A stretch of 40,422 bases of DNA. Origin: a virus. Its lineage: Duplodnaviria > Heunggongvirae > Uroviricota > Caudoviricetes. The translations under genes and the position numbers were made by a program. The stretch is taken from the IMG/VR virus record IMGVR_UViG_2563366920_000004; one strand, given 5' to 3'. The notes under the pieces were generated by a model that did no database searches, had not been told where the DNA came from, and saw only the letters and a list, made by a program, of their open reading frames with translations. Below are positions 7,103 to 37,627 of this stretch, in pieces (position 1 is the stretch's first letter; each line of letters starts with the position of its first letter).

Positions 7103-7119
7103 ATTACCTTTCGGGTAAT
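7103..7119. promoter_or_regulatory. operator-like palindrome ATTACC-TTTCG-GGTAAT
   Basis: Perfect TTACC-N5-GGTAA inverted repeat in the divergent region between the tailspike start and the SOS-box gene. Confidence 0.6.
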
Positions 7120-7155: not shown

Positions 7156-7175
7156 TACTGTATAAATATACAGTT
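7156..7175. promoter_or_regulatory. LexA (SOS) box TACTGTATAAATATACAGTT
   Basis: CTGT-N8-ACAG core with an AT-rich spacer, close to the E. coli LexA consensus; about 20 bp upstream of the ATG at 7195. Confidence 0.7.
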
Positions 7176-7194: not shown

Positions 7195-7452
7195 ATGCAG
7201 CAGTATCACTATCCACTGGAAGACGGATTTACCGAAAGGATTCACACGCCGGGAGGCGTCAGATCACTGGTGGAGGGATCGCACTTGATGAAATTACTCC
7301 GGGATCTCGATAAGGATGGATTTAATGTCGATGGCCCACTTGCCGAACTGACTGCACTGATTAACTACGTCACCAGCTCACAGATGTCTATGCAGGATCT
7401 GCAAACACATCTCGACTATTGTGCCGAACAATTACGAAAACAAACCACATAA
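7195..7452 (+). CDS. small antirepressor-like protein (paralog of the Bro-N antirepressor C-terminal domain)
   Basis: ATG at 7195 with GGAG RBS 8 nt upstream (track ORF begins at a TTG at 7177); C-terminus LMKLLRDLDKDGFNVDGPLAELTALINYVTSSQMSMQDLQTHLDY aligns with the C-terminus of 8598..9290. Confidence 0.65.
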   Translation: MQQYHYPLEDGFTERIHTPGGVRSLVEGSHLMKLLRDLDKDGFNVDGPLAELTALINYVTSSQMSMQDLQTHLDYCAEQLRKQTT

Positions 7453-7490
7453 AGAAAAGGCCGCTCTAGCGGCCTATCGTTTCGCTTTGT
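7451..7490. terminator. bidirectional intrinsic terminator
   Basis: GGCCGC-TCTA-GCGGCC hairpin with A-run upstream and T-rich tract downstream, between convergent genes 7195..7452 (+) and 7474..8202 (-). Confidence 0.55.
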
Positions 7491-8202
7491 GCTCGTCCCA
7501 GCACGTTTTGCACCATGCCATTAAGCCGTCCGCATTTTGATTATTAGGGTAAAAGCTAGTTCGTTTTCTGCGGACATTACAAATTGGGCACCACTTCATA
7601 TGGCGTGTATTCTTTGGGCCATCGAGACACCTTGCACACCACTTAGTCAATCCATCTGGATTTTTTGACGATTTCCTGAATTTTTCATATGGAAGGTTTA
7701 TTCTGCATCGCAAGCACTGCTTGCTACCACTTGAAACTCTGTTAGCTGATTCTTCTTTTGGCGGCGATACAGAAGGTATTCTTGCTGGCTCTGATACTGC
7801 CTGAGGTGCTTTTTTAGATGACTGAGACGATATGTCATCACCAGGGAATCTTCCATGATATGCCGGACGCGTTGACACTCCGGGTGGAAGCTCAGCTGTA
7901 AACGGCTTTGGCTGAATCAGTTGCCTCTCTTTTGCTAACTCCTGCTGTTTATAATATGTCTGGATTACCGCGCTATCATAAGCAGGAGGTACGGAAATAT
8001 TAGGCGCATTATCTCCCGTTTTTTGAAACTGAGTGGAGGTGTGTTCTATCACCTGTGTACGATTAATCGTTATCTCCCCATCTTCAGTCTTTATCGTTTT
8101 GTTATGATTAACGACCGTACGATCAGAGATCTTAGTCTTGTTCTGGTTGATAACGTAAATAATCACCGCAACCACACCAACAACTACCCAGAAAACTTCC
8201 AT
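7474..8202 (-). CDS. membrane-anchored protein with C-terminal tandem CxxC zinc-ribbon repeats, unknown function
   Basis: N-terminal transmembrane helix (VFWVVVGVVAVIIYVI), long Pro/Ser-rich linker, C-terminal duplicated motif C-x2-C ... DGL-x2-WC-x2-C; GAGGAAAGG RBS before ATG. Confidence 0.6.
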   Translation of the reverse strand: MEVFWVVVGVVAVIIYVINQNKTKISDRTVVNHNKTIKTEDGEITINRTQVIEHTSTQFQKTGDNAPNISVPPAYDSAVIQTYYKQQELAKERQLIQPKPFTAELPPGVSTRPAYHGRFPGDDISSQSSKKAPQAVSEPARIPSVSPPKEESANRVSSGSKQCLRCRINLPYEKFRKSSKNPDGLTKWCARCLDGPKNTRHMKWCPICNVRRKRTSFYPNNQNADGLMAWCKTCWDEHKAKR

Positions 8203-8222: not shown

Positions 8223-8237
8223 TTACCTTAAAGGTAA
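8223..8237. promoter_or_regulatory. operator-like palindrome TTACC-TTAAA-GGTAA
   Basis: Perfect palindrome 21 bp upstream of the 7474..8202 start codon, in the divergent region shared with the Bro-N gene. Confidence 0.6.
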
Positions 8238-8315: not shown

Positions 8316-8330
8316 TTACCTTTGCGGTAA
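8316..8330. promoter_or_regulatory. operator-like palindrome TTACC-TTTGC-GGTAA
   Basis: Second perfect copy in the same divergent region. Confidence 0.6.
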
Positions 8331-8424
8331 ATTTACATCGCACTCCTCTTGTGCCATAGTAATCGGGCACTGGCAAAATCCAGTGCCGGGATTGGTCTCC
8401 CGGATTACTACAGAGGCACATATG

Positions 8425-8443
8425 CCGCATAAGCGGTTTTTTT
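8425..8443 (+). terminator. intrinsic terminator-like hairpin plus T7 run inside the Bro-N gene leader
   Basis: CCGC-ATAA-GCGG followed by TTTTTTT; preceded by two further GC hairpins (about 8365-8403); lies about 155 bp upstream of the Bro-N start. Confidence 0.45.
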
Positions 8444-8597
8444 ATGTGTAAAGCGCACCTATTCTATGGTGGGCTGTGTGGGGGCACCGAAAGGTGCGCC
8501 GGGTTCCTTTGTAGCCGGTAAGACCAACTCTGCACAGTTCACCACCATCTGATTGGTCTCAGCGGTGGTGATTAACCTAACTACAAAGGTGATCGCC

Positions 8598-9290
8598 ATG
8601 AATACCAAACCTTCCATCTTTTCCTTTGAGTCATCCTGCCAGATCCGTATGTTCATGATTGACGGAGAACCTTGGTTTGTCACCAAAGATGTGTGCAATG
8701 CTTTGAATATTGATGTTACACAAGCGAGAAAACTTGATAAAAAAGGCTGGAACAAAAAGGGGCTGTATTCAATACAGACCCCTGGTGGAATACAAGAACT
8801 ATCCATCGTTTCAGAATCAGGTCTCTACATCCTTATTCTGCGTTGCAAAGAGGCAATGACTGAGGGAACGAGAGCATTCAGATTTCTTGAATGGGTTACA
8901 GGTGAGGTTCTTCCTCAGATCCGCCGCACCGGAAGTTACATTAAAAACTCGCTCCCGCAGGAAGAACGCATAAAGATGGTTGCCGACCAGGTAGCCAACG
9001 CCACAGCATCAGCAGTGATGCAGGCAATGAAGATAGAGAACAAAACCTACAGTGCCCCGCTGAAGCCCGGCTACCGCAGCCTGATTCATTCTCCGTCTGG
9101 TGTTCTCGGCCTGACGGAGAACTCATTGCTTATGAATCTGCTAAACCAGTTACAGGAAGACGGGCACGACGTATCGGGCGCGGCGGCGGAGCTGACCACC
9201 ATGTTCTGCTACATCGTCGGTGTGAGCAAATGCCTGCGTGATATCCAGACGCACGCGGAGTACATCAACGACAAGGCAGGGTTCTTCTGA
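8598..9290 (+). CDS. Bro-N domain antirepressor
   Basis: Start set at internal Met (MNTKPSIFSFESSCQIRMFMIDGEPWFVTKDVCNALNI...) of track ORF 8553..9290, with AAGGTGA RBS; N-terminal Bro-N pattern; C-terminal domain paralogous to 7195..7452. Confidence 0.75.
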   Translation: MNTKPSIFSFESSCQIRMFMIDGEPWFVTKDVCNALNIDVTQARKLDKKGWNKKGLYSIQTPGGIQELSIVSESGLYILILRCKEAMTEGTRAFRFLEWVTGEVLPQIRRTGSYIKNSLPQEERIKMVADQVANATASAVMQAMKIENKTYSAPLKPGYRSLIHSPSGVLGLTENSLLMNLLNQLQEDGHDVSGAAAELTTMFCYIVGVSKCLRDIQTHAEYINDKAGFF

Positions 9291-9505: not shown

Positions 9506-10045
9506 GTGTTAAGTGAAGAAATGCAATTTGCCATGGCTGTGGCTCAAATCGTAAGTGCAGTCGCGGTTTCGCTTGGCTTGTTCATAGCTATCGCTACTAT
9601 TATTTATAATGTAAATACAGCGAGAAAAGTACACACTTCAGTATTCCTTGGTGAAAGCAGGTTTGATGTAGATTATAAGAAAGGCCTATCTACTATGCGC
9701 CGCATTCACGAGTCGAACAAATCATTCCGCTCTTATATGTATCCAAGCAATGGGCAGGCTGATCTTACGGATGAAGAAAAGATAGAGAAGAGAGAAATAA
9801 TTTACTGTCTAGGTTTCTACGAACGCATGGCTGTGAGCGTGAAGCGGAAAACTTATGATGAGACCATGATTAAGGAAGTATTTTACAGCTCCGTTGTAAA
9901 TAACTATCAGATTGCGCTACCTCTTATACAAGCTATTAGAGAAAAAGAAAACATAAACACATATTTTAAAGAATATGAATGGTTGGCCACACGATGGAAG
10001 GATTGTCCATTGAAGGATAAATCCCCGTGGTACAAGTTTTGGTAA
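9506..10045 (+). CDS. single-pass membrane protein of unknown function (candidate superinfection-exclusion/abortive-infection moron)
   Basis: GTG start with GGAG RBS 7 nt upstream; N-terminal transmembrane helix (AVAQIVSAVAVSLGLFIAIATIIY) then ~140-aa soluble domain; visibly AT-rich; strong terminator immediately downstream. Confidence 0.6.
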   Translation: MLSEEMQFAMAVAQIVSAVAVSLGLFIAIATIIYNVNTARKVHTSVFLGESRFDVDYKKGLSTMRRIHESNKSFRSYMYPSNGQADLTDEEKIEKREIIYCLGFYERMAVSVKRKTYDETMIKEVFYSSVVNNYQIALPLIQAIREKENINTYFKEYEWLATRWKDCPLKDKSPWYKFW

Positions 10046-22390: not shown

Positions 22391-22441
22391 CTTCTTTCTC
22401 CATTAGTGGGTCTGTTACGACCCACAGGTTAATAACAGGCG

Positions 22442-26424: not shown

Positions 26425-26439
26425 TTACCTTTCAGGTAA
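26425..26439. promoter_or_regulatory. operator-like palindrome TTACC-TTTCA-GGTAA
   Basis: Perfect palindrome just downstream of a TTGACA hexamer, upstream of the portal operon. Confidence 0.6.
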
Positions 26440-26761: not shown

Positions 26762-26838
26762 GTGGCATTAGCTCAGTTGGACAGAGCAACCGCCTTCTAA
26801 GCGGTTGGTCGCAGGTTCGAATCCTGCATGCCACGCCA
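26762..26838 (+). tRNA. tRNA-Arg (anticodon UCU), phage-encoded
   Basis: Cloverleaf traced by hand: 7-bp acceptor stem GTGGCAT/ATGCCAC, D-arm GCTC/GAGC, anticodon stem ACCGC/GCGGT with loop CTTCTAA, T-arm GCAGG-TTCGAAT-CCTGC, discriminator G and encoded CCA. Confidence 0.85.
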
Positions 26839-28977: not shown

Positions 28978-29570
28978 TGATTACCATCCTGACGTTCTTT
29001 GAGTCGCTTCCTGGCTGCCGCTATGCGATCAGCAATTGTCACATTCACATTAACATCCAGTCGTTCTTTGAATGCGTTGACGTCGACGTGCTTACCAATC
29101 AGTTCGAGGTTCTTCACCTTGTCAGGCCATTTAATTTTTTTGAGGATTGTCTCTATCGAATCCTCGTTCATGTTCATGATGGTCGATGACAGATCAAAGC
29201 CGCTAAGCGTAGTGCGCCAGATTTTCGGCCACTCGCGGATTGGCTTAAGGCTCCCATCGTCGTTGAGGATATCAATCACGTCCATCTGGTCGATCTCCAC
29301 CAGGCGCATGAGAACGTAATCAGCACTGACGCGCATTCGTTTGTTGCGCTCCTCCATCAACTCGGCAATCCGTTTCTGAATGCGTTCATCGCGCATCATG
29401 ACACTGGCTTTAACTGCCGCTGTATTTGGGGAGAATCCTGCATTAATCGCAGCCTGAGTCTGGTTTTCAGGCGTTTTGATGTATGACTGGCAATAAGCCT
29501 CCTGCATTGCTGTTAGTGGCTTAAATTGCGTTGATTTGCGTTTATAGGCTTTAGGTTCAGCAGGCATCAT
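28974..29570 (-). CDS. terminase small subunit
   Basis: Start moved to internal Met-27 (MMPAEPKAYKRK...) of track ORF 28974..29648; the track's TTG-initiated N-terminal extension covers a non-coding operator palindrome. Confidence 0.6.
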   Translation of the reverse strand: MMPAEPKAYKRKSTQFKPLTAMQEAYCQSYIKTPENQTQAAINAGFSPNTAAVKASVMMRDERIQKRIAELMEERNKRMRVSADYVLMRLVEIDQMDVIDILNDDGSLKPIREWPKIWRTTLSGFDLSSTIMNMNEDSIETILKKIKWPDKVKNLELIGKHVDVNAFKERLDVNVNVTIADRIAAARKRLKERQDGNQ

Positions 29571-29586
29571 AACCACCGTGGTAATA

Positions 29587-29601
29587 GTTACCGTTGTGGT
29601 A
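29587..29601. promoter_or_regulatory. operator-like palindrome TTACC-GTTGT-GGTAA
   Basis: Perfect palindrome within a direct repeat of TGGTAATAGT, about 17 bp upstream of the proposed terS start. Confidence 0.55.
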
Positions 29602-29644
29602 ATAGTAACATGCAAAATAAAGCCGCCATAGTTGGCGGCAGTAT

Positions 29645-31968: not shown

Positions 31969-32316
31969 TCAGAACTCTTCGATGTTCCAGCCACCACCTG
32001 CTTTCTTTGGTTTAACCGTTACCCCGATGATTCGGAACGGATACTGATCTGCGGCGACTTTGGTTTTCACCCTGGCGTCGTCGGTCCAGAATCCCCCTTT
32101 CACTTCGTGCAGCTCCATCTCGCCGGTGGCGAGCATCACAGCAAAATCGGGCGTATAGAACGTGTTGTCAGCTAACCGCAGCTTGATACCCTCAAATCGA
32201 TACCAGACGATTTCTCCTGCACGTTTACGCATCTCAAGGTGCTGGCAATACGCAGATTCTGTTTTGTTCATCTGGCCTGTTTTGAGTCGACCAAGAGCCT
32301 GTATCTGTTTTCTCAT
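31969..32316 (-). CDS. PD-(D/E)xK nuclease-like protein (DUF1064-like; possible Holliday-junction resolvase)
   Basis: 115 aa; motif TPDF ... ELHEVKG consistent with a PD-(D/E)xK active site; located after the replication genes. Confidence 0.5.
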   Translation of the reverse strand: MRKQIQALGRLKTGQMNKTESAYCQHLEMRKRAGEIVWYRFEGIKLRLADNTFYTPDFAVMLATGEMELHEVKGGFWTDDARVKTKVAADQYPFRIIGVTVKPKKAGGGWNIEEF

Positions 32317-32319
32317 GAT

Positions 32320-32334
32320 TTACCTCTGAGGTAA
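32320..32334. promoter_or_regulatory. operator-like palindrome TTACC-TCTGA-GGTAA overlapping the RBS of the nuclease gene
   Basis: Perfect palindrome ending 4 nt upstream of the 32316 start codon. Confidence 0.55.
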
Positions 32335-32381
32335 TTAAAAACCACATAAGACACGAAATCAATAGAGTTTAGAATATTTTG

Positions 32382-32396
32382 TTACCCAACAGGTAA
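32382..32396. promoter_or_regulatory. operator-like palindrome GTTACC-CAACA-GGTAAC
   Basis: Perfect 17-bp palindrome about 65 bp upstream of the nuclease gene. Confidence 0.55.
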
Positions 32397-34283: not shown

Positions 34284-34298
34284 TTACCTTTGAGGTAC
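34284..34298. promoter_or_regulatory. operator-like palindrome, one mismatch (TTACC-TTTGA-GGTAC)
   Basis: About 80 bp upstream of the 33993..34205 start. Confidence 0.4.
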
Positions 34299-34353
34299 GA
34301 ATAGATATGAAAAGACCGCCGGATGGCGGTCTACAGAGGGTTGTGGATGGATA

Positions 34354-34584
34354 TCATGAGTAGAAGAAGTATGCCAGTTCTGCTTTTGAGCGCAGCCATT
34401 GTCTTGTTTTACAGGCTTTAAAAAGCCCATTCATCAATACCTTACCTGGCATTTTGCGCTTGCCTGTTAAGTGAGTCTGGATATAGTGACTCGTCGTTCC
34501 GGCTTCCTGTGCGAAGGCTTCACGCTCATCCGGAGTAAGTGCAAGCCAGTGCTTTTTGAAATCGAAATGTCCGTTATCGCTCAT
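34354..34584 (-). CDS. Cro-like HTH regulator (YdaS/Cro family)
   Basis: 76 aa; HTH-like segment LTPDEREAFAQEAGTTSHYIQTHLTGKRKMPGK; divergent from the repressor gene. Confidence 0.6.
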   Translation of the reverse strand: MSDNGHFDFKKHWLALTPDEREAFAQEAGTTSHYIQTHLTGKRKMPGKVLMNGLFKACKTRQWLRSKAELAYFFYS

Positions 34585-34620
34585 AGCTATTGCCTGATAT
34601 TTATTTCAGATAATAAATAT

Positions 34621-34683
34621 TCACCCATAAGGTAACAAAAATCAAGGATAGTTACCTATGAGGTGCATTTACCTGTTGGGTAA
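34621..34683. promoter_or_regulatory. right-operator-like cluster of three palindromes between Cro-like and repressor genes
   Basis: TCACC-CATAA-GGTAA (34621..34635), TTACC-TATGA-GGTGC (34652..34666) and TTACC-TGTTG-GGTAA (34669..34683) in the 154-bp divergent intergenic region. Confidence 0.65.
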
Positions 34684-34738
34684 TATTGCTTTAAATTGAA
34701 TCATCTACTGATTCATATATGAGGCGATTTTCCAGAAA

Positions 34739-35323
34739 ATGAAAAGTATCCAGGACGTCCGCAGGCAAAATCTCAACGACTTGATCGACCGTGAATTCAA
34801 TGGTGTTCAGACGCGGATGGCAGAAAAACTTGGAACTCAGGCAAATCTGGTAAACCGCTGGGCTCTTGGCAAGAAGGTTATCGGCGACCAGGTTGCGCGA
34901 AAAATTGAAGCTGCCGCCAATAAACCCCGTAACTGGCTTGATATCGATCGCTCGCTTTCTCAGGAAGGTTTTCAGCCTGTCGGACCAAGCGACATTGGTC
35001 AACTGGCGGCTCACAACCTGGAACGCTGGATGAGCGAAAGCCGCGACCTTTCAACACAGGGAAAACTTCACCGTGCATCCGGCGTCGCCCAGGTGACAAT
35101 CAGCCGCCTGTTAAACAATGAGGTCAGCGTTTCCATTTCCACCCTGGAGAATGTTGCATCCGCATTCGGGCGTCACGGCTATGAATTACTGATTCACCCG
35201 CACGACCCTGCGACCATCAACTATGACCGCTCGCGCTACGCATTGTTACCCGAAACCGAGAAAGCAAAGATCGAAAGTTACATTGAATTTGTCATCAACC
35301 AGAACGAAAAAAACAAACAATAA
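34739..35323 (+). CDS. immunity repressor with two tandem XRE-type HTH domains and no S24 peptidase domain
   Basis: 194 aa; HTH-like segments QTRMAEKLGTQANLVNRWALGKK and ASGVAQVTISRLLNNEVSVSISTLENVASAFG; no Ala-Gly/Ser-Lys autocleavage signature; GAGGCG RBS. Confidence 0.7.
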   Translation: MKSIQDVRRQNLNDLIDREFNGVQTRMAEKLGTQANLVNRWALGKKVIGDQVARKIEAAANKPRNWLDIDRSLSQEGFQPVGPSDIGQLAAHNLERWMSESRDLSTQGKLHRASGVAQVTISRLLNNEVSVSISTLENVASAFGRHGYELLIHPHDPATINYDRSRYALLPETEKAKIESYIEFVINQNEKNKQ

Positions 35324-35345
35324 AATCATATTTTTCAGTAAGTAA

Positions 35346-35367
35346 GCCGCCTTCTGGCGGCTTTTTT
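35346..35367 (+). terminator. intrinsic terminator after the repressor gene
   Basis: GCCGCC-TTCT-GGCGGC followed by TTTTTT. Confidence 0.75.
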
Positions 35368-35380
35368 ATTGCCTGTTCGA

Positions 35381-35457
35381 TTACCTAATAGGTAATTTTT
35401 TCAACTCATATCTATTGACATCAAACCAGATACGCATAATTATTACCTCAACGGTAA
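35381..35457. promoter_or_regulatory. left-operator-like pair flanking a TTGACA promoter for the early-left operon
   Basis: TTACC-TAATA-GGTAA (35381..35395) and TTACC-TCAAC-GGTAA (35443..35457) on either side of TTGACA (35415..35420) and an AT-rich -10 region. Confidence 0.65.
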
Positions 35458-35631: not shown

Positions 35632-35931
35632 ATGAACGTTAATCAGCAGAAAAATCTTCAAAAAATCATGCTGGCATTCGACAAGGACTACCGCCTGTCA
35701 GAACAGCTATATGACCGACAAGTTGAACTGATTGAGAGCATCCGACTTCATCAACTGTCCTCAACTTTCGACGTTGTAACAGGCAAAGGCGTTCGTCAGG
35801 AAGTACTGGAGGCTGCTAAAGACAGCCCTGAGTTCGAAGAACTGATGGATGCCTATCGGCGAGAGGCAATGGCAATTATCGCCCGCTGGGATCTGGCAGA
35901 TCAGCTTGATGGACAGAGGGACGCGGCATGA
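35632..35931 (+). CDS. hypothetical early protein (first sizeable gene of the early-left operon)
   Basis: Start set at internal Met (MNVNQQK...) of track ORF 35617..35931 with GGGAGGG RBS; 4-nt overlap with the exonuclease gene. Confidence 0.5.
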   Translation: MNVNQQKNLQKIMLAFDKDYRLSEQLYDRQVELIESIRLHQLSSTFDVVTGKGVRQEVLEAAKDSPEFEELMDAYRREAMAIIARWDLADQLDGQRDAA

Positions 35932-36749
35932 AACCGGGAATTTATTTCGACATCAGCAACGAAGACTACCACGCCGGTGACGGCGTGAGTAAGTCGCAAC
36001 TGGACATGGTTGCCAAGAATCCGGCGCTTCTCAAATGGGTTCAGGCAGCACCAGAAGACGAAGAGAAAAAGTCTGCACTAGATATGGGAACTGCATTGCA
36101 CTGTCTGCTTCTGGAACCTGGAGAATTCGACAAACGCTTCATTGTTTCACCAAAGTTCGATCGTCGGACGAAACAAGGTAAAGCTGACGAAGAAGCATTT
36201 CTTCGTGATGTAGCGGATATGGGGATTTCGGTACTTGATGCAGAGCAGTGGCGAAAACTGGAGCTGATGCGTGATAGCGCAATGGCTCACCCAGCGGCAC
36301 GCTGGATGTTGGAAGCACCTGGTTACTGCGAAGCATCAATGTACTGGAACGATGAAGATACGGGTGAGTTGTGCCGAATTCGTCCAGACAAATGGCTGAA
36401 CGAGCACAACGTGATCGTCGACGTGAAAAAGGTTGCAGATATGGACCGTTTTGCACGCCACATCGAGGAATTCCGCTACCACGTGCAGGACGCAATGTAC
36501 CGCGAAGGCGCAATGAAGGTTACTGGTCAGCCGCATGGTTTTTTCTTTCTTGCCGTGAGCGAAAGCATTGATTGTGGTCGGTATCCGGTACGCGTGTTCG
36601 AGCTGGATGCGCCGGATGTCGATGCCGGGCACGCTCTGTTCCGCCGGGATCTGAATACCTATCACGAATGCCGCATCAACGATGAGTGGGGCGGAGTGGA
36701 AATTATTAAACGCCCTGACTGGGCACGTAAACAGGATATGTACGTATGA
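35928..36749 (+). CDS. YqaJ-like viral recombinase exonuclease (PD-(D/E)xK)
   Basis: 273 aa; IRPDKWL ... VIVDVKKV motif pattern of the lambda-exonuclease/YqaJ family; coupled to the RecT-like gene. Confidence 0.7.
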   Translation: MKPGIYFDISNEDYHAGDGVSKSQLDMVAKNPALLKWVQAAPEDEEKKSALDMGTALHCLLLEPGEFDKRFIVSPKFDRRTKQGKADEEAFLRDVADMGISVLDAEQWRKLELMRDSAMAHPAARWMLEAPGYCEASMYWNDEDTGELCRIRPDKWLNEHNVIVDVKKVADMDRFARHIEEFRYHVQDAMYREGAMKVTGQPHGFFFLAVSESIDCGRYPVRVFELDAPDVDAGHALFRRDLNTYHECRINDEWGGVEIIKRPDWARKQDMYV

Positions 36750-37627
36750 GCAATGATATCGCAATCACATCACAACCAGGCGCAACTGTAGGTACTGCTG
36801 CGGCAATCTTCAGCCCGGAGGGCATGAATCAACTGGTGCGTTTCGCGGAGTTGATGTCACAAAGCAAAGCGACTGTACCGAAACATCTTGAAGGCAAACC
36901 TGCCGATTGTCTGGCGGTGACCATGCAGGCGGCACAGTGGGGAATGAATCCTTTCGCCGTGGCGCAGAAAACGCATGTGGTAAACGGAACGTTAGGCTAC
37001 GAAGCACAGTTGGTAAACGCGGTCGTATCCTCTTCCAGCCTGCTAGCGACACGCCTGAATTATCGCTGGAGCGGTGACTGGTCGAATGTTAACGGCAAAA
37101 CAGATAAATCACCGAATCTGACGGTAACTGTGTCAGCAGTTCTTAAAGGAGAAGCAGAACCCCGTGAGCTTACCATCAGTATGGCGCAAGCCGGAGTGCG
37201 TAACTCTCCATTGTGGGAACAGGATCCGCGCCAGCAGCTTGCCTATCTTTGCACGAAACGATGGGCTCGCCTGCACGCTCCTGATGTACTTCTCGGTGTT
37301 TACACCCCTGACGAATTACAGGAAACGGCACCGCGCGTTGAGCGAGACATTACTCCGCAAACGACCACTGCTGCGGGAATGAACAGTCTGATCAACGCTA
37401 AACCAGCGAAAAAGCCTGATGAGCAAACGCGTAAAGCGGATAGCCGTGATCCAGAAGAAATGCTGATGGCCTTTACCAGCGCAGCGATGAATTACAGCAC
37501 TGTCTCCGAACTGGATAAGGCTTACAAATACATTGCACAAAAACTTTCAGATGATGACGAACTGCTGGCAAAAGCCACCGACGTTTACAGCGTTCGTCGG
37601 GAAGAATTAAACGAAACATCTATGTAA
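36746..37627 (+). CDS. recT: RecT-family single-strand annealing protein
   Basis: 293 aa; segment FAELMSQSKATVPKHLEGKPADCLAVTMQAAQWGMNPFAVAQKTHVVNG typical of RecT; partnered with the exonuclease. Confidence 0.75.
   Translation: MSNDIAITSQPGATVGTAAAIFSPEGMNQLVRFAELMSQSKATVPKHLEGKPADCLAVTMQAAQWGMNPFAVAQKTHVVNGTLGYEAQLVNAVVSSSSLLATRLNYRWSGDWSNVNGKTDKSPNLTVTVSAVLKGEAEPRELTISMAQAGVRNSPLWEQDPRQQLAYLCTKRWARLHAPDVLLGVYTPDELQETAPRVERDITPQTTTAAGMNSLINAKPAKKPDEQTRKADSRDPEEMLMAFTSAAMNYSTVSELDKAYKYIAQKLSDDDELLAKATDVYSVRREELNETSM

Follow-up and report, generated by a model that had tools for sequence, protein, structure and literature searches.

Lysis-lysogeny switch of a phiV10-type Uetakevirus prophage with a probable antirepressor-controlled repressor of the SPC32H type

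The region at positions 34354-35457, together with the rest of the prophage switch, is very probably the lysis-lysogeny switch of a Uetakevirus prophage (phiV10/epsilon15/SPC32H group). The same reading, held with the same high confidence, includes a repressor (Rep) that is inactivated by a small antirepressor (Ant) and does not cleave itself, and whose second helix-turn-helix (HTH)-fold segment most likely serves to join subunits. The DNA analyzed here, referred to as the window, is the whole 40,422-nucleotide stretch of IMG/VR virus record IMGVR_UViG_2563366920_000004, and it is 97-98.7% identical to phiV10-type phages that carry the identical repressor. All elements that a preliminary description had placed within 34354-35457 are present there, and its identification of an immunity region is supported. 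Judged from its sequence, Rep is the phiV10 allele of an SPC32H-type Rep with a three-part architecture, as follows.

34739-35323, + strand: rep, prophage repressor, 194 aa (ORF call; PDB 5D50_A match, AlphaFold2, and Foldseek)
34739-34948, + strand: putative N-terminal HTH DNA-binding domain, approximately aa 1-70 (role from the SPC32H Rep literature)
aa 71-84, + strand: disordered linker (AlphaFold2)
34991-35194, + strand: putative middle HTH-fold dimerisation domain, aa 85-152 (role from the SPC32H Rep literature)
35195-35320, + strand: putative C-terminal tetramerisation/Ant-binding domain, aa 153-194 (role from the SPC32H Rep literature)

Sequence and fold comparisons made here show full-length homology of Rep to SPC32H Rep, with residues 1-190 aligned on residues 2-197 of PDB 5D50_A (E = 4e-42), residues 89-190 matching PDB 5D4Z (E = 4.1e-20), and an identity to SPC32H Rep of 41.8% (tblastn). 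A Foldseek search with the Rep model returned the 5D50 chains at the top (E = 5e-11) and 5D4Z on the C-terminal half (TM 0.74); the half with the middle domain also matched 3VK0, SinR, and DdrO-type folds. In the AlphaFold2 model, separate helical domains (residues 4-59 and 85-151) are joined by a disordered linker (residues 70-84) and followed by a C-terminal helix (residues 172-193), and the C-terminal part is of low confidence (pLDDT 49-72). Pfam detects HTH_3 in two stretches (E = 1.2e-9, the best one at residues 106-147); residues 21-61 give a sub-threshold Cro/YdaS-type HTH match, and residues 106-148 give HTH_3 and LacI-headpiece matches. Pfam and AlphaFold2 agree on two HTH-fold segments in one chain, as had been proposed.

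No peptidase family matches Rep in a Pfam profile search, even at E ≤ 1, and the translation, read directly, contains no Ala-Gly or Cys-Gly dipeptide, i.e., no such cleavage site. The preliminary description had stated that the S24 peptidase domain typical of lambda CI is lacking and had allowed for a cryptic peptidase in profile searches; the former statement holds, the latter domain was not found, and domain prediction gave two helical domains and no peptidase. These observations, the match of the C-terminal 40 residues of Rep to the Ant-binding/tetramerisation domain of 5D4Z, and the presence in the window of an ant gene with a LexA box all argue against inactivation of Rep by cryptic self-cleavage or host proteolysis instead of by an antirepressor. 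No point in favor of such inactivation was found in this analysis, and we consider it exceedingly improbable.

Rep is 100% identical to phiV10 gp40 (PhiV10p40), to vB_EcoP_ZX5 ORF21, and to the repressor of O157 typing phages 9 and 10, among others. The GenBank note on phiV10 gp40 already states "two helix-turn-helix motifs." Repression of lytic genes is known from published work on the identical ZX5 protein; i.e., when ORF21 was overexpressed, no free phage was obtained and the endolysin transcript decreased by 99.99%.

The other elements of the immunity region, with one operator-like palindrome and a terminator just outside it, are listed below.

34284-34298, no strand assigned: operator-like palindrome TTACCTTTGAGGTAC, 1 mismatch, just downstream of the terminator of the Cro-like gene
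34313-34332, - strand: intrinsic terminator after the Cro-like gene (terminator call; phiV10 annotates a terminator at the same place)
34354-34584, - strand: Cro-like early regulator gene, 76 aa, divergent from rep and first gene of the rightward (replication) operon
34638-34633 (-35) and 34615-34610 (-10), - strand: best leftward OR promoter candidate
34621-34635, no strand assigned: predicted OR site a, TCACCCATAAGGTAA, 1 mismatch, overlapping the -35 and spacer of the leftward OR promoter candidate above
34652-34666, no strand assigned: predicted OR site b, TTACCTATGAGGTGC, 2 mismatches, its centre 31 bp from that of site a
34669-34683, no strand assigned: predicted OR site c, TTACCTGTTGGGTAA, perfect, spaced 17 bp from site b, the closest of the three to the rep start
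35344-35363, + strand: intrinsic terminator of the rep transcript, plus T-run (terminator call; annotated in phiV10)
35381-35395, no strand assigned: predicted OL site 1, TTACCTAATAGGTAA, perfect, upstream of the PL -35
35415-35443, + strand: PL-like promoter, TTGACA at 35415-35420, 17-nt spacer, AATTAT at 35438-35443, 10/12 match
35443-35457, no strand assigned: predicted OL site 2, TTACCTCAACGGTAA, perfect, abutting the -10 and covering the expected start site, 62 bp centre-to-centre from OL site 1

The label "Cro-like" is given because of the position of the gene, the match of its product to phrog_35 "transcriptional repressor" (E = 5.6e-13), and the weak similarity of residues 24-64 to the N-terminal HTH of Rep (E = 0.004). 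Its single-sequence AlphaFold2 model contains five helices (pLDDT 81.6). The nearest Foldseek neighbors of this model are YdaS/434-type HTH folds, none of which is significant (best E about 1), and the protein has neither a Pfam family (a RepC match is at chance level) nor a PDB sequence match. The PL-like promoter is the best sigma-70 match in the region and heads a 50-aa ORF, a 104-aa ORF, the exonuclease gene, and recT, which supports the proposal that the TTGACA promoter heads the early-left (exonuclease/RecT) operon. Promoter matches in the OR region are weak (8-9/12), and scans around the other operators likewise gave weak, ambiguous matches (8-9/12); we assign PL (10/12) and, tentatively, the leftward OR promoter.

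The three palindromes proposed between the repressor and the Cro-like gene were found at 34621, 34652, and 34669, and the two proposed to bracket the downstream TTGACA promoter were found at 35381 and 35443, both perfect. The motif, its enrichment, and its layout were all derived from the sequences compared here. The 15-bp palindrome TTACC-N5-GGTAA occurs in 10 perfect copies in the window, compared with 0.03 expected (100 shuffles; maximum of 1 in any shuffle), and at least nine more sites with no more than 1 mismatch are found in the window outside 34354-35457. These predicted sites include the following.

7104-7118, no strand assigned: predicted Rep operator, perfect, in the interval from the tailspike gene to ant
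8223-8237 and 8316-8330, no strand assigned: two predicted Rep operators, both perfect, upstream of the leader RNAs and the Bro-Ant gene that they precede
26425-26439, no strand assigned: one perfect operator, upstream of the late genes on the portal side
29570-29584 (1 mismatch) and 29588-29602 (perfect), no strand assigned: operator pair upstream of the terminase/late operon
32320-32334 and 32382-32396, no strand assigned: second promoter-bracketing operator pair, both perfect, 62 bp apart, between the replication genes and the next leftward gene

Most of these positions recur in relatives. The operator at 7104-7118 is syntenic with SPC32H 20013 and with epsilon15 19895, an annotated repressor-binding site; that at 26425-26439 with SPC32H 3175 and epsilon15 2931; the pair at 29570-29602 with SPC32H position 12 and epsilon15 12-27; and the 32320/32382 pair with SPC32H 35972/36034, with epsilon15 35906 annotated as a repressor site. 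The TTACCTTTGAGGTAC site has counterparts at locus position 1046 of both Tyrion and BUCT711. In SPC32H, 18 sites with ≤1 mismatch are present compared with 0.74 expected, at positions syntenic with those in the window. The OR spacing of 30-31 bp/17 bp is common to SPC32H, Tyrion, and BUCT711, in which the spacing of the OL pair (62-63 bp) is also conserved. The motif enrichment and the syntenic sites in relatives support the proposal that the palindromes are repressor operators, as which they are predicted here. We infer both that one Rep tetramer bridges the 62-bp operator pairs and which promoter belongs to which individual OR site.

The SPC32H Rep-Ant system was reportedly described by Kim and Ryu in 2013 and by Kim et al. 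in 2016, with PDB entries 5D4Z (Rep alone) and 5D50 (with the antirepressor). The domain roles and tetrameric binding discussed below come from published work on homologs and, for the SPC32H Rep domains, from two later papers that describe the structures. According to those descriptions, DNA binding belongs to the N-terminal domain, dimerisation to the middle HTH-fold domain, and both tetramerisation and Ant binding to the C-terminal domain (CAD); Rep on DNA is a tetramer, in which the N-terminal pair on one palindrome comes from different dimers (trans).

This arrangement bears on the proposal that a single monomer contacts both half-sites of one palindrome, the N-terminal HTH on one half-site and the second HTH on the other. 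Two HTH-fold domains are indeed present in one chain, the flexible linker of approximately 15 residues might in principle allow both to contact DNA, the second domain is the stronger Pfam HTH_3 match, and an invariant arginine (R123) is kept in its third helix. However, the half-sites are identical inverted copies (T26 T25 A28 C28 C28 in 28 half-sites), which requires a dyad-related pair of identical reading heads, and the two HTH segments of Rep have no detectable similarity to each other (BLASTP of the N-terminal segment against the rest of the chain, E ≤ 100). The same search ruled out a recent duplication as the origin of the "tandem" HTHs. Two different heads would select an asymmetric site; single-chain proteins with two HTHs, such as those of the AraC/MarA family, recognize asymmetric sites. 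An AraC/MarA-like protein places both HTHs on an asymmetric bipartite site, whereas the Rep sites are symmetric palindromes and its HTHs are unrelated.

Conservation and charge also distinguish the two domains. Across homologs down to 41% identity, 29/70 residues are invariant in the N-terminal domain, including N36, L37, R40, and W41 of the recognition helix, compared with 11/68 in the middle domain, while the TTACC half-site is invariant in SPC32H, Tyrion, and BUCT711. The recognition helix of the N-terminal domain alone is kept together with the half-site. The net charge of the N-terminal domain is +4 and that of the middle domain is 0. In the solved homolog, as described in the two later papers, the middle domain dimerises, and the protein bound to DNA is tetrameric and makes contact through its N-terminal domains. 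Binding of one monomer to both half-sites is therefore very improbable. The alternative named in the preliminary description, a conventional dimer of single-HTH subunits, would by homology essentially apply to Rep, except that the oligomer would be a tetramer and not a simple dimer. By analogy with SPC32H Rep, the most likely role of the middle HTH-fold segment is to hold subunits together, not to read DNA.

An intermediate possibility is that the N-terminal domains read the palindromes while the middle domain dimerises and adds auxiliary, probably non-specific, DNA contacts, for example by touching DNA between operators 17, 31, or 62 bp apart. The middle domain has a bona fide XRE-type fold, as seen in the Foldseek and Pfam matches given above, and the conserved operator spacings imply a defined higher-order complex. 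On the other hand, contact of the middle domain with DNA is absent from the descriptions of the SPC32H structures in the two later papers, the domain is neutral in net charge, and only A/T-rich flanks, and no second conserved DNA motif, were seen beside the operators. We consider such auxiliary contacts unlikely. There is a similarly slight chance that the Rep tetramer engages the DNA between the 62-bp operator pairs (35381/35443 and 32320/32382) via the middle HTH and wraps the enclosed promoter; if this were true, Rep would be a repressor with an exapted second HTH that helps to form a micro-loop around the promoter.

The reading preferred here, in which the middle domain only joins subunits, is completed by genes outside the immunity region, of which ant and its LexA box were identified in the window by the present sequence work.

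7158-7173, no strand assigned: LexA box CTGTATAAATATACAG, perfect, 23 bp upstream of the ant ATG
7196-7452, + strand: ant, small antirepressor, 85 aa (match to the 5D50 "Anti-repressor protein" chain; phrog_450)
8598-9290, + strand: second antirepressor-type gene, with a Bro-N domain (E = 1.8e-13) fused to an Ant-like C-terminal domain

The ant product is 88% identical to 5D50_E (E = 1.3e-47), and the gene adjoins the tailspike gene, the position of ant in SPC32H, where CTGTATAAACATACAG stands at the matching position before ant. In SPC32H, Ant is made after LexA cleavage, and its tetramer is described as breaking the Rep tetramer; by analogy with this published disassembly, the small Ant is expected to be the factor that inactivates Rep. 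Two other CTGT-N8-ACAG sequences, at 22412 and 26954, are G+C-rich in the centre and lack any regulatory context nearby, and were treated as chance occurrences and not as LexA boxes. Residues 147-228 of the Bro-Ant protein match phrog_450 (E = 3.2e-37), and the protein is 42% identical to the small Ant (E = 7e-16). In the phiV10 record, p23 is annotated as "putative anti-immunity protein." Directly upstream of the Bro-Ant gene lies a C4 antisense RNA (78.6 bits), with an IsrK-like RNA beside it.

In the proposed mechanism, the N-terminal Cro/CI-type HTH of Rep would read the half-site TTACC, the middle domain would be an HTH fold used as a dimerisation module, and the short C-terminal domain would make tetramers and dock the antirepressor. 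Each 15-bp palindrome would be occupied by a pair of N-terminal domains contributed by separate chains. The three sites between rep and the Cro-like gene would control the divergent promoters; the two sites 62 bp apart would bracket the leftward early promoter, with the downstream site abutting the -10; and further Rep sites would act at most other phage transcription units. Since Rep is without an autocleavage domain, induction would run through LexA: upon DNA damage, LexA would leave the box at 7158-7173 and Ant would be made, and the binding of Ant to the C-terminal part of Rep would break up the tetramer and release Rep from DNA.

Comparison with known systems places the switch within its group. 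In phiV10-type phages, the flanking genes, terminators, and operators are the same as those of the window, with no difference in 34354-35457, whereas the phiV10 record annotates a RecET fusion where the window has exonuclease and RecT as separate ORFs. With SPC32H the window shares the full-length Rep homology, the three-domain plan, the absence of an S24 domain, the palindromic operators with their TTACC-N5-GGTAA consensus, genomic positions, and OR/OL spacings, and a LexA-boxed gene for the small Ant (88% identical) next to the tailspike gene. Rep, in contrast, is only about 42% identical, and the cognate pairing of Rep with Ant is therefore an assumption by comparison with the solved SPC32H pair. 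Furthermore, SPC32H has three OL sites and the window has two, the sixth base of the half-site tends to T in the window and is often A in SPC32H, and the Bro-Ant fusion with C4/IsrK-like RNAs is absent from the SPC32H annotation. The epsilon15 repressor gp38 is a homologous but different allele (42% identical). Sites annotated in epsilon15 as "protein_bind: repressor" precede terS and gp3, occupy the interval from gp19 to the tailspike gene and OL (three sites), and follow the replication gene, a layout that matches that of the window; the OR sites carry no repressor-site annotation in that record.

The switch resembles those of the lambda CI/P22 C2/LexA type in its divergent rep and cro-like genes with three operators in between, its operators at the early-left promoter downstream of rep, the N-terminal Cro/CI-type HTH with palindromic operators at divergent promoters, and SOS-linked induction. 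However, the phiV10-type Rep has neither an S24 domain with a Ser-Lys dyad nor a cleavage site, its oligomerisation modules are unrelated, its induction would proceed via a LexA-controlled antirepressor, and its predicted operators are also located at late and accessory promoters. Coliphage 186 Tum and the Gifsy/Fels-2 antirepressors follow the same logic, in which the repressor is non-cleavable and an antirepressor is made on LexA cleavage. P1 controls its antirepressor by c4 RNA upstream of ant, and the predicted C4 RNA directly upstream of the Bro-Ant gene would be a likeness to this P1/P7 c4 antisense RNA-ant module; the arrangement in the window lies outside 34354-35457 and differs in the adjoining IsrK-like RNA. 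A review describes the Salmonella Ants as "homologous to Tum."

Nothing in this region is new: the repressor, its two HTH motifs, and its repressor activity are already in public records and papers, and the structure and mechanism of the family, induction by the antirepressor, and the dispersed operators are likewise published or on record. The practical value of the analysis is correct annotation, and it is small as a discovery; the RefSeq label of the repressor gene in E. coli is only "helix-turn-helix domain-containing protein," and the small ant is labelled "hypothetical" in the phiV10 and epsilon15 records. The locus is present in 540 of 5426 complete E. coli genomes; i.e., the switch is carried by approximately one in ten. 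In these carrier genomes, induction should depend on the LexA-controlled Ant and not on cleavage of the repressor.

The immunity region of the prophage occupies window positions 34354-35457, with the operators OR (sites a, b, and c) between the Cro-like gene and the repressor gene rep, and the operators OL around the promoter PL.

34354-34584, minus strand, Cro-like ORF, 76 aa (ORF call)
34621, OR palindrome TTACC-N5-GGTAA, 1 mismatch
34652, OR palindrome TTACC-N5-GGTAA, 2 mismatches
34669, OR palindrome TTACC-N5-GGTAA, 0 mismatches
34739-35323, plus strand, rep ORF, 194 aa (ORF call)
35344-35363, strong intrinsic terminator, 3' of rep
35381 and 35443, OL palindromes, both perfect, bracketing PL; the 35443 copy abuts the -10 element
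35415-35443, sigma-70 promoter match TTGACA-17-AATTAT (PL)

The preliminary description of this region was accurate: both ORFs and the TTGACA promoter are present, and a motif scan places three of the five palindromes in the 154-bp gap between the two ORFs and two around the promoter. The best leftward promoter candidate in OR is TTGTTA-17-TATTAT (9/12), with site a lying across its -35 element and spacer, and no convincing rep promoter was found in a promoter scan of the OR region; promoter assignment here is tentative. Downstream of PL come two small ORFs and the genes for a YqaJ-type exonuclease and for RecT. The latter two genes are separate, overlapping ORFs (35928-37627, plus strand; 273 aa for the exonuclease, 293 aa for RecT), whereas the phiV10 record has one 1761-nt "recET fusion"; either record could contain a frameshift or a sequencing difference that accounts for this. 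The 1.1-kb region occurs at at least 95% identity in 540 of 5426 complete E. coli genomes, and strain MS20659 (NZ_CP082073.1) matches it at 100%. Among the listed hits in these carrier genomes, RefSeq gives the repressor no name beyond "helix-turn-helix domain-containing protein," and the product of the Cro-like gene is a "hypothetical protein."

The rightward operon begins with the Cro-like gene, which is followed by a terminator; this position is one of several indications of a small HTH regulator. Its product matches phrog_35 "transcriptional repressor" (E = 5.6e-13), and residues 24-64 are weakly similar to the N-terminal HTH of the repressor, Rep (E = 0.004). A single-sequence model contains five helices, for which a fold search gave no significant match to YdaS or 434-repressor domains. 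"Cro-like" is a fair, not a proven, label for this 76-aa protein.

Rep contains two HTH_3 stretches in Pfam, the better of which covers residues 106-147, and a subthreshold Cro/YdaS-type HTH match at residues 21-61; no peptidase family was found in Pfam. The earlier reading of an immunity region with a noncleavable repressor of two HTH folds is right. In the AlphaFold2 model, built with 32 homologs as input, the N-terminal domain consists of four helices (residues 4-59, pLDDT 85-92), residues 70-84 form a disordered linker, the second domain consists of five helices (residues 85-151, pLDDT 77-87), and the C-terminal helix (residues 172-193) is of lower confidence. Foldseek ranked the chains of 5D50 and 5D4Z on top, followed by generic XRE-type HTH proteins. 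Both structures are from Salmonella phage SPC32H, 5D50 showing the Rep-Ant complex and 5D4Z the tetramer of Rep(92-198); in the PDB sequence search, Rep matches 5D50 chain A ("Repressor") over its full length (residues 1-190 versus 2-197, E = 4e-42), and its C-terminal fragment matches 5D4Z (E = 4.1e-20). DNA identity is 97-98.7% to phiV10, vB_EcoP_ZX5, TL-2011b, O157 typing phages 9 and 10, and others. At the protein level, Rep has the same sequence (100% identity) as the repressors in phiV10 and roughly a dozen further phage records, whereas identity is 75-78% to those of Enterobacter phages, 45% to those of Klebsiella phages, and 42% to those of epsilon15 and SPC32H; all of these phages belong to the genus Uetakevirus. 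In GenBank, the phiV10 rep gene already carries the note "two helix-turn-helix motifs (PF01381)."

On present evidence, the proposal that a single Rep monomer covers a whole palindrome, with one HTH on each half-site, is incorrect. The half-sites repeat one sequence in inverted orientation (in the 28 half-sites of 14 sites, the core is T in 26, T in 25, and A, C, and C in all 28), and their centers are 10 bp apart, the classical geometry for two identical heads on a dyad. Single-chain binders with two HTHs, such as AraC and MarA, recognize asymmetric sites rather than perfect palindromes. No similarity was detected between the two HTH segments of Rep, which are therefore not expected to select the same pentamer. 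In an alignment of homologs spanning 41-100% identity, 29 of 70 residues are invariant in the N-terminal domain (including N36, L37, R40, and W41 of the third helix), compared with 11 of 68 in the middle domain and 8 of 42 in the C-terminal part, and the net charge, +4 for the N-terminal domain versus 0 for the middle domain, also favors the N-terminal domain as the reader of DNA. The TTACC half-site is unchanged in SPC32H, Tyrion, and BUCT711; the conserved N-terminal head goes together with the conserved half-site.

The solved SPC32H homolog, as summarized in later papers, also argues against a monomer. There, Rep comprises an N-terminal DNA-binding domain, a middle dimerization domain (MDD), and a C-terminal domain (CAD, alias TetDloop) responsible for both tetramer formation and antirepressor binding. 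The tetramer is the DNA-bound form, the dimer binding only weakly, and each palindrome is occupied by two N-terminal domains contributed by different dimers within the tetramer. The least conventional reading, that the middle HTH-fold domain retains some DNA contact in a promoter-wrapping tetramer, is very improbable. Overexpression of the identical repressor of ZX5 abolished free phage and lowered endolysin and holin transcripts by 99.99% and 99.97%, respectively.

Beyond OR and OL, almost all boundaries between transcription units of the phage carry Rep operator motifs.

7104-7118, predicted operator, perfect, between the tailspike gene and ant
8223, 8316, 9362, and 34284, additional operator motifs (motif scan)
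26425, operator, position matching SPC32H and epsilon15
29570 and 29588, operators before the terminase genes, positions matching SPC32H and epsilon15
32320 and 32382, operator pair after the replication genes, positions matching SPC32H and epsilon15

The window holds 10 perfect TTACC-N5-GGTAA palindromes versus 0.03 expected, with at most one in any of 100 shuffles. The epsilon15 GenBank record carries "protein_bind: repressor" at the OL region and at four more places (before terS, before gp3, in the gp19-tailspike interval, and after the replication gene). A tRNA-Arg(TCT) at 26762-26838 (plus strand) is antisense to the surrounding late genes, and a tRNA-Arg is present at the corresponding site in SPC32H. 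Within 32316-32340, the right half of the 32320 operator (GAGGTAA) is also the Shine-Dalgarno sequence of the next minus-strand gene, whose ATG lies 3 nt past the operator.

The OR sites are spaced 31 and 17 bp center to center, and this 30-31/17 pattern is common to SPC32H, Tyrion, and BUCT711. The two OL sites are separated by 62 bp here, in SPC32H, and in Tyrion, and by 63 bp in BUCT711; the 32320/32382 pair is also exactly 62 bp apart, like its SPC32H counterpart (35972/36034). In both 62-bp pairs the downstream operator is joined to an AATTA element (AATTAT-TACCTCAACGGTAA at PL and TTAATTACCTCAGAGGTAA at the 32320 pair). Since 62 bp is approximately six helical turns and a tetramer offers two N-terminal pairs, it is reasonable to infer that one Rep tetramer would bridge both sites with the promoter enclosed.

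Two probable antirepressor loci lie at the left of the window.

7158-7173, LexA box CTGTATAAATATACAG, perfect match, 23 bp upstream of the ant ATG
7196-7452, plus strand, ant, 85-aa ORF, 88% identical to the 5D50 Ant chain (E = 1.3e-47)
8367-8443, plus strand, IsrK-like sRNA (Rfam, 74.7 bits)
8462-8549, plus strand, C4 antisense RNA (Rfam, 78.6 bits)
8598-9290, plus strand, Bro-N protein, 230 aa, phrog_450; C-terminal domain 42% identical to small SPC32H-type Ant (E = 7e-16)

In SPC32H, too, the order is ant, LexA box, operator, and tailspike gene; later papers on that system describe Ant as made upon LexA cleavage in the SOS response and, as a tetramer, binding two Rep dimers and breaking the Rep tetramer. 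Ant is 88% identical to that of SPC32H, whereas its presumed target Rep is only approximately 42% identical overall and 38% in the Ant-binding half. Either Ant reads a few conserved C-terminal Rep residues (the homolog alignment gives I160, Y162, D163, L170, P171, K175, K177, and F184) or antirepressors cross-act between phages of the genus. The phiV10 counterpart of the Bro-N/Ant fusion is annotated "putative anti-immunity protein," and overexpressing a protein of this type from ZX5 lowered lysogeny. The two RNAs lie directly upstream of the fusion gene, an arrangement resembling the c4-ant control module of P1/P7; given this C4 module, the phage seems to control two antirepressors in different ways, one through LexA and one through antisense RNA. 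Two accessory genes in the ant/tailspike region (7474-8202, minus strand, and 9506-10045, plus strand) are each closely preceded by a Rep operator (8223 and 9362); one product (242 aa) has an N-terminal hydrophobic segment, a Cys-rich C terminus, and a weak Stc1 match, and the second product belongs to DUF4760 (E = 1.6e-30).

Each layer of this system has been described before, from the identical protein itself through to homolog crystal structures. The TTACC half-site and the recognition helix are common to the phiV10-type and epsilon15/SPC32H-type phages despite 42% repressor identity, which raises the question of cross-immunity between them.
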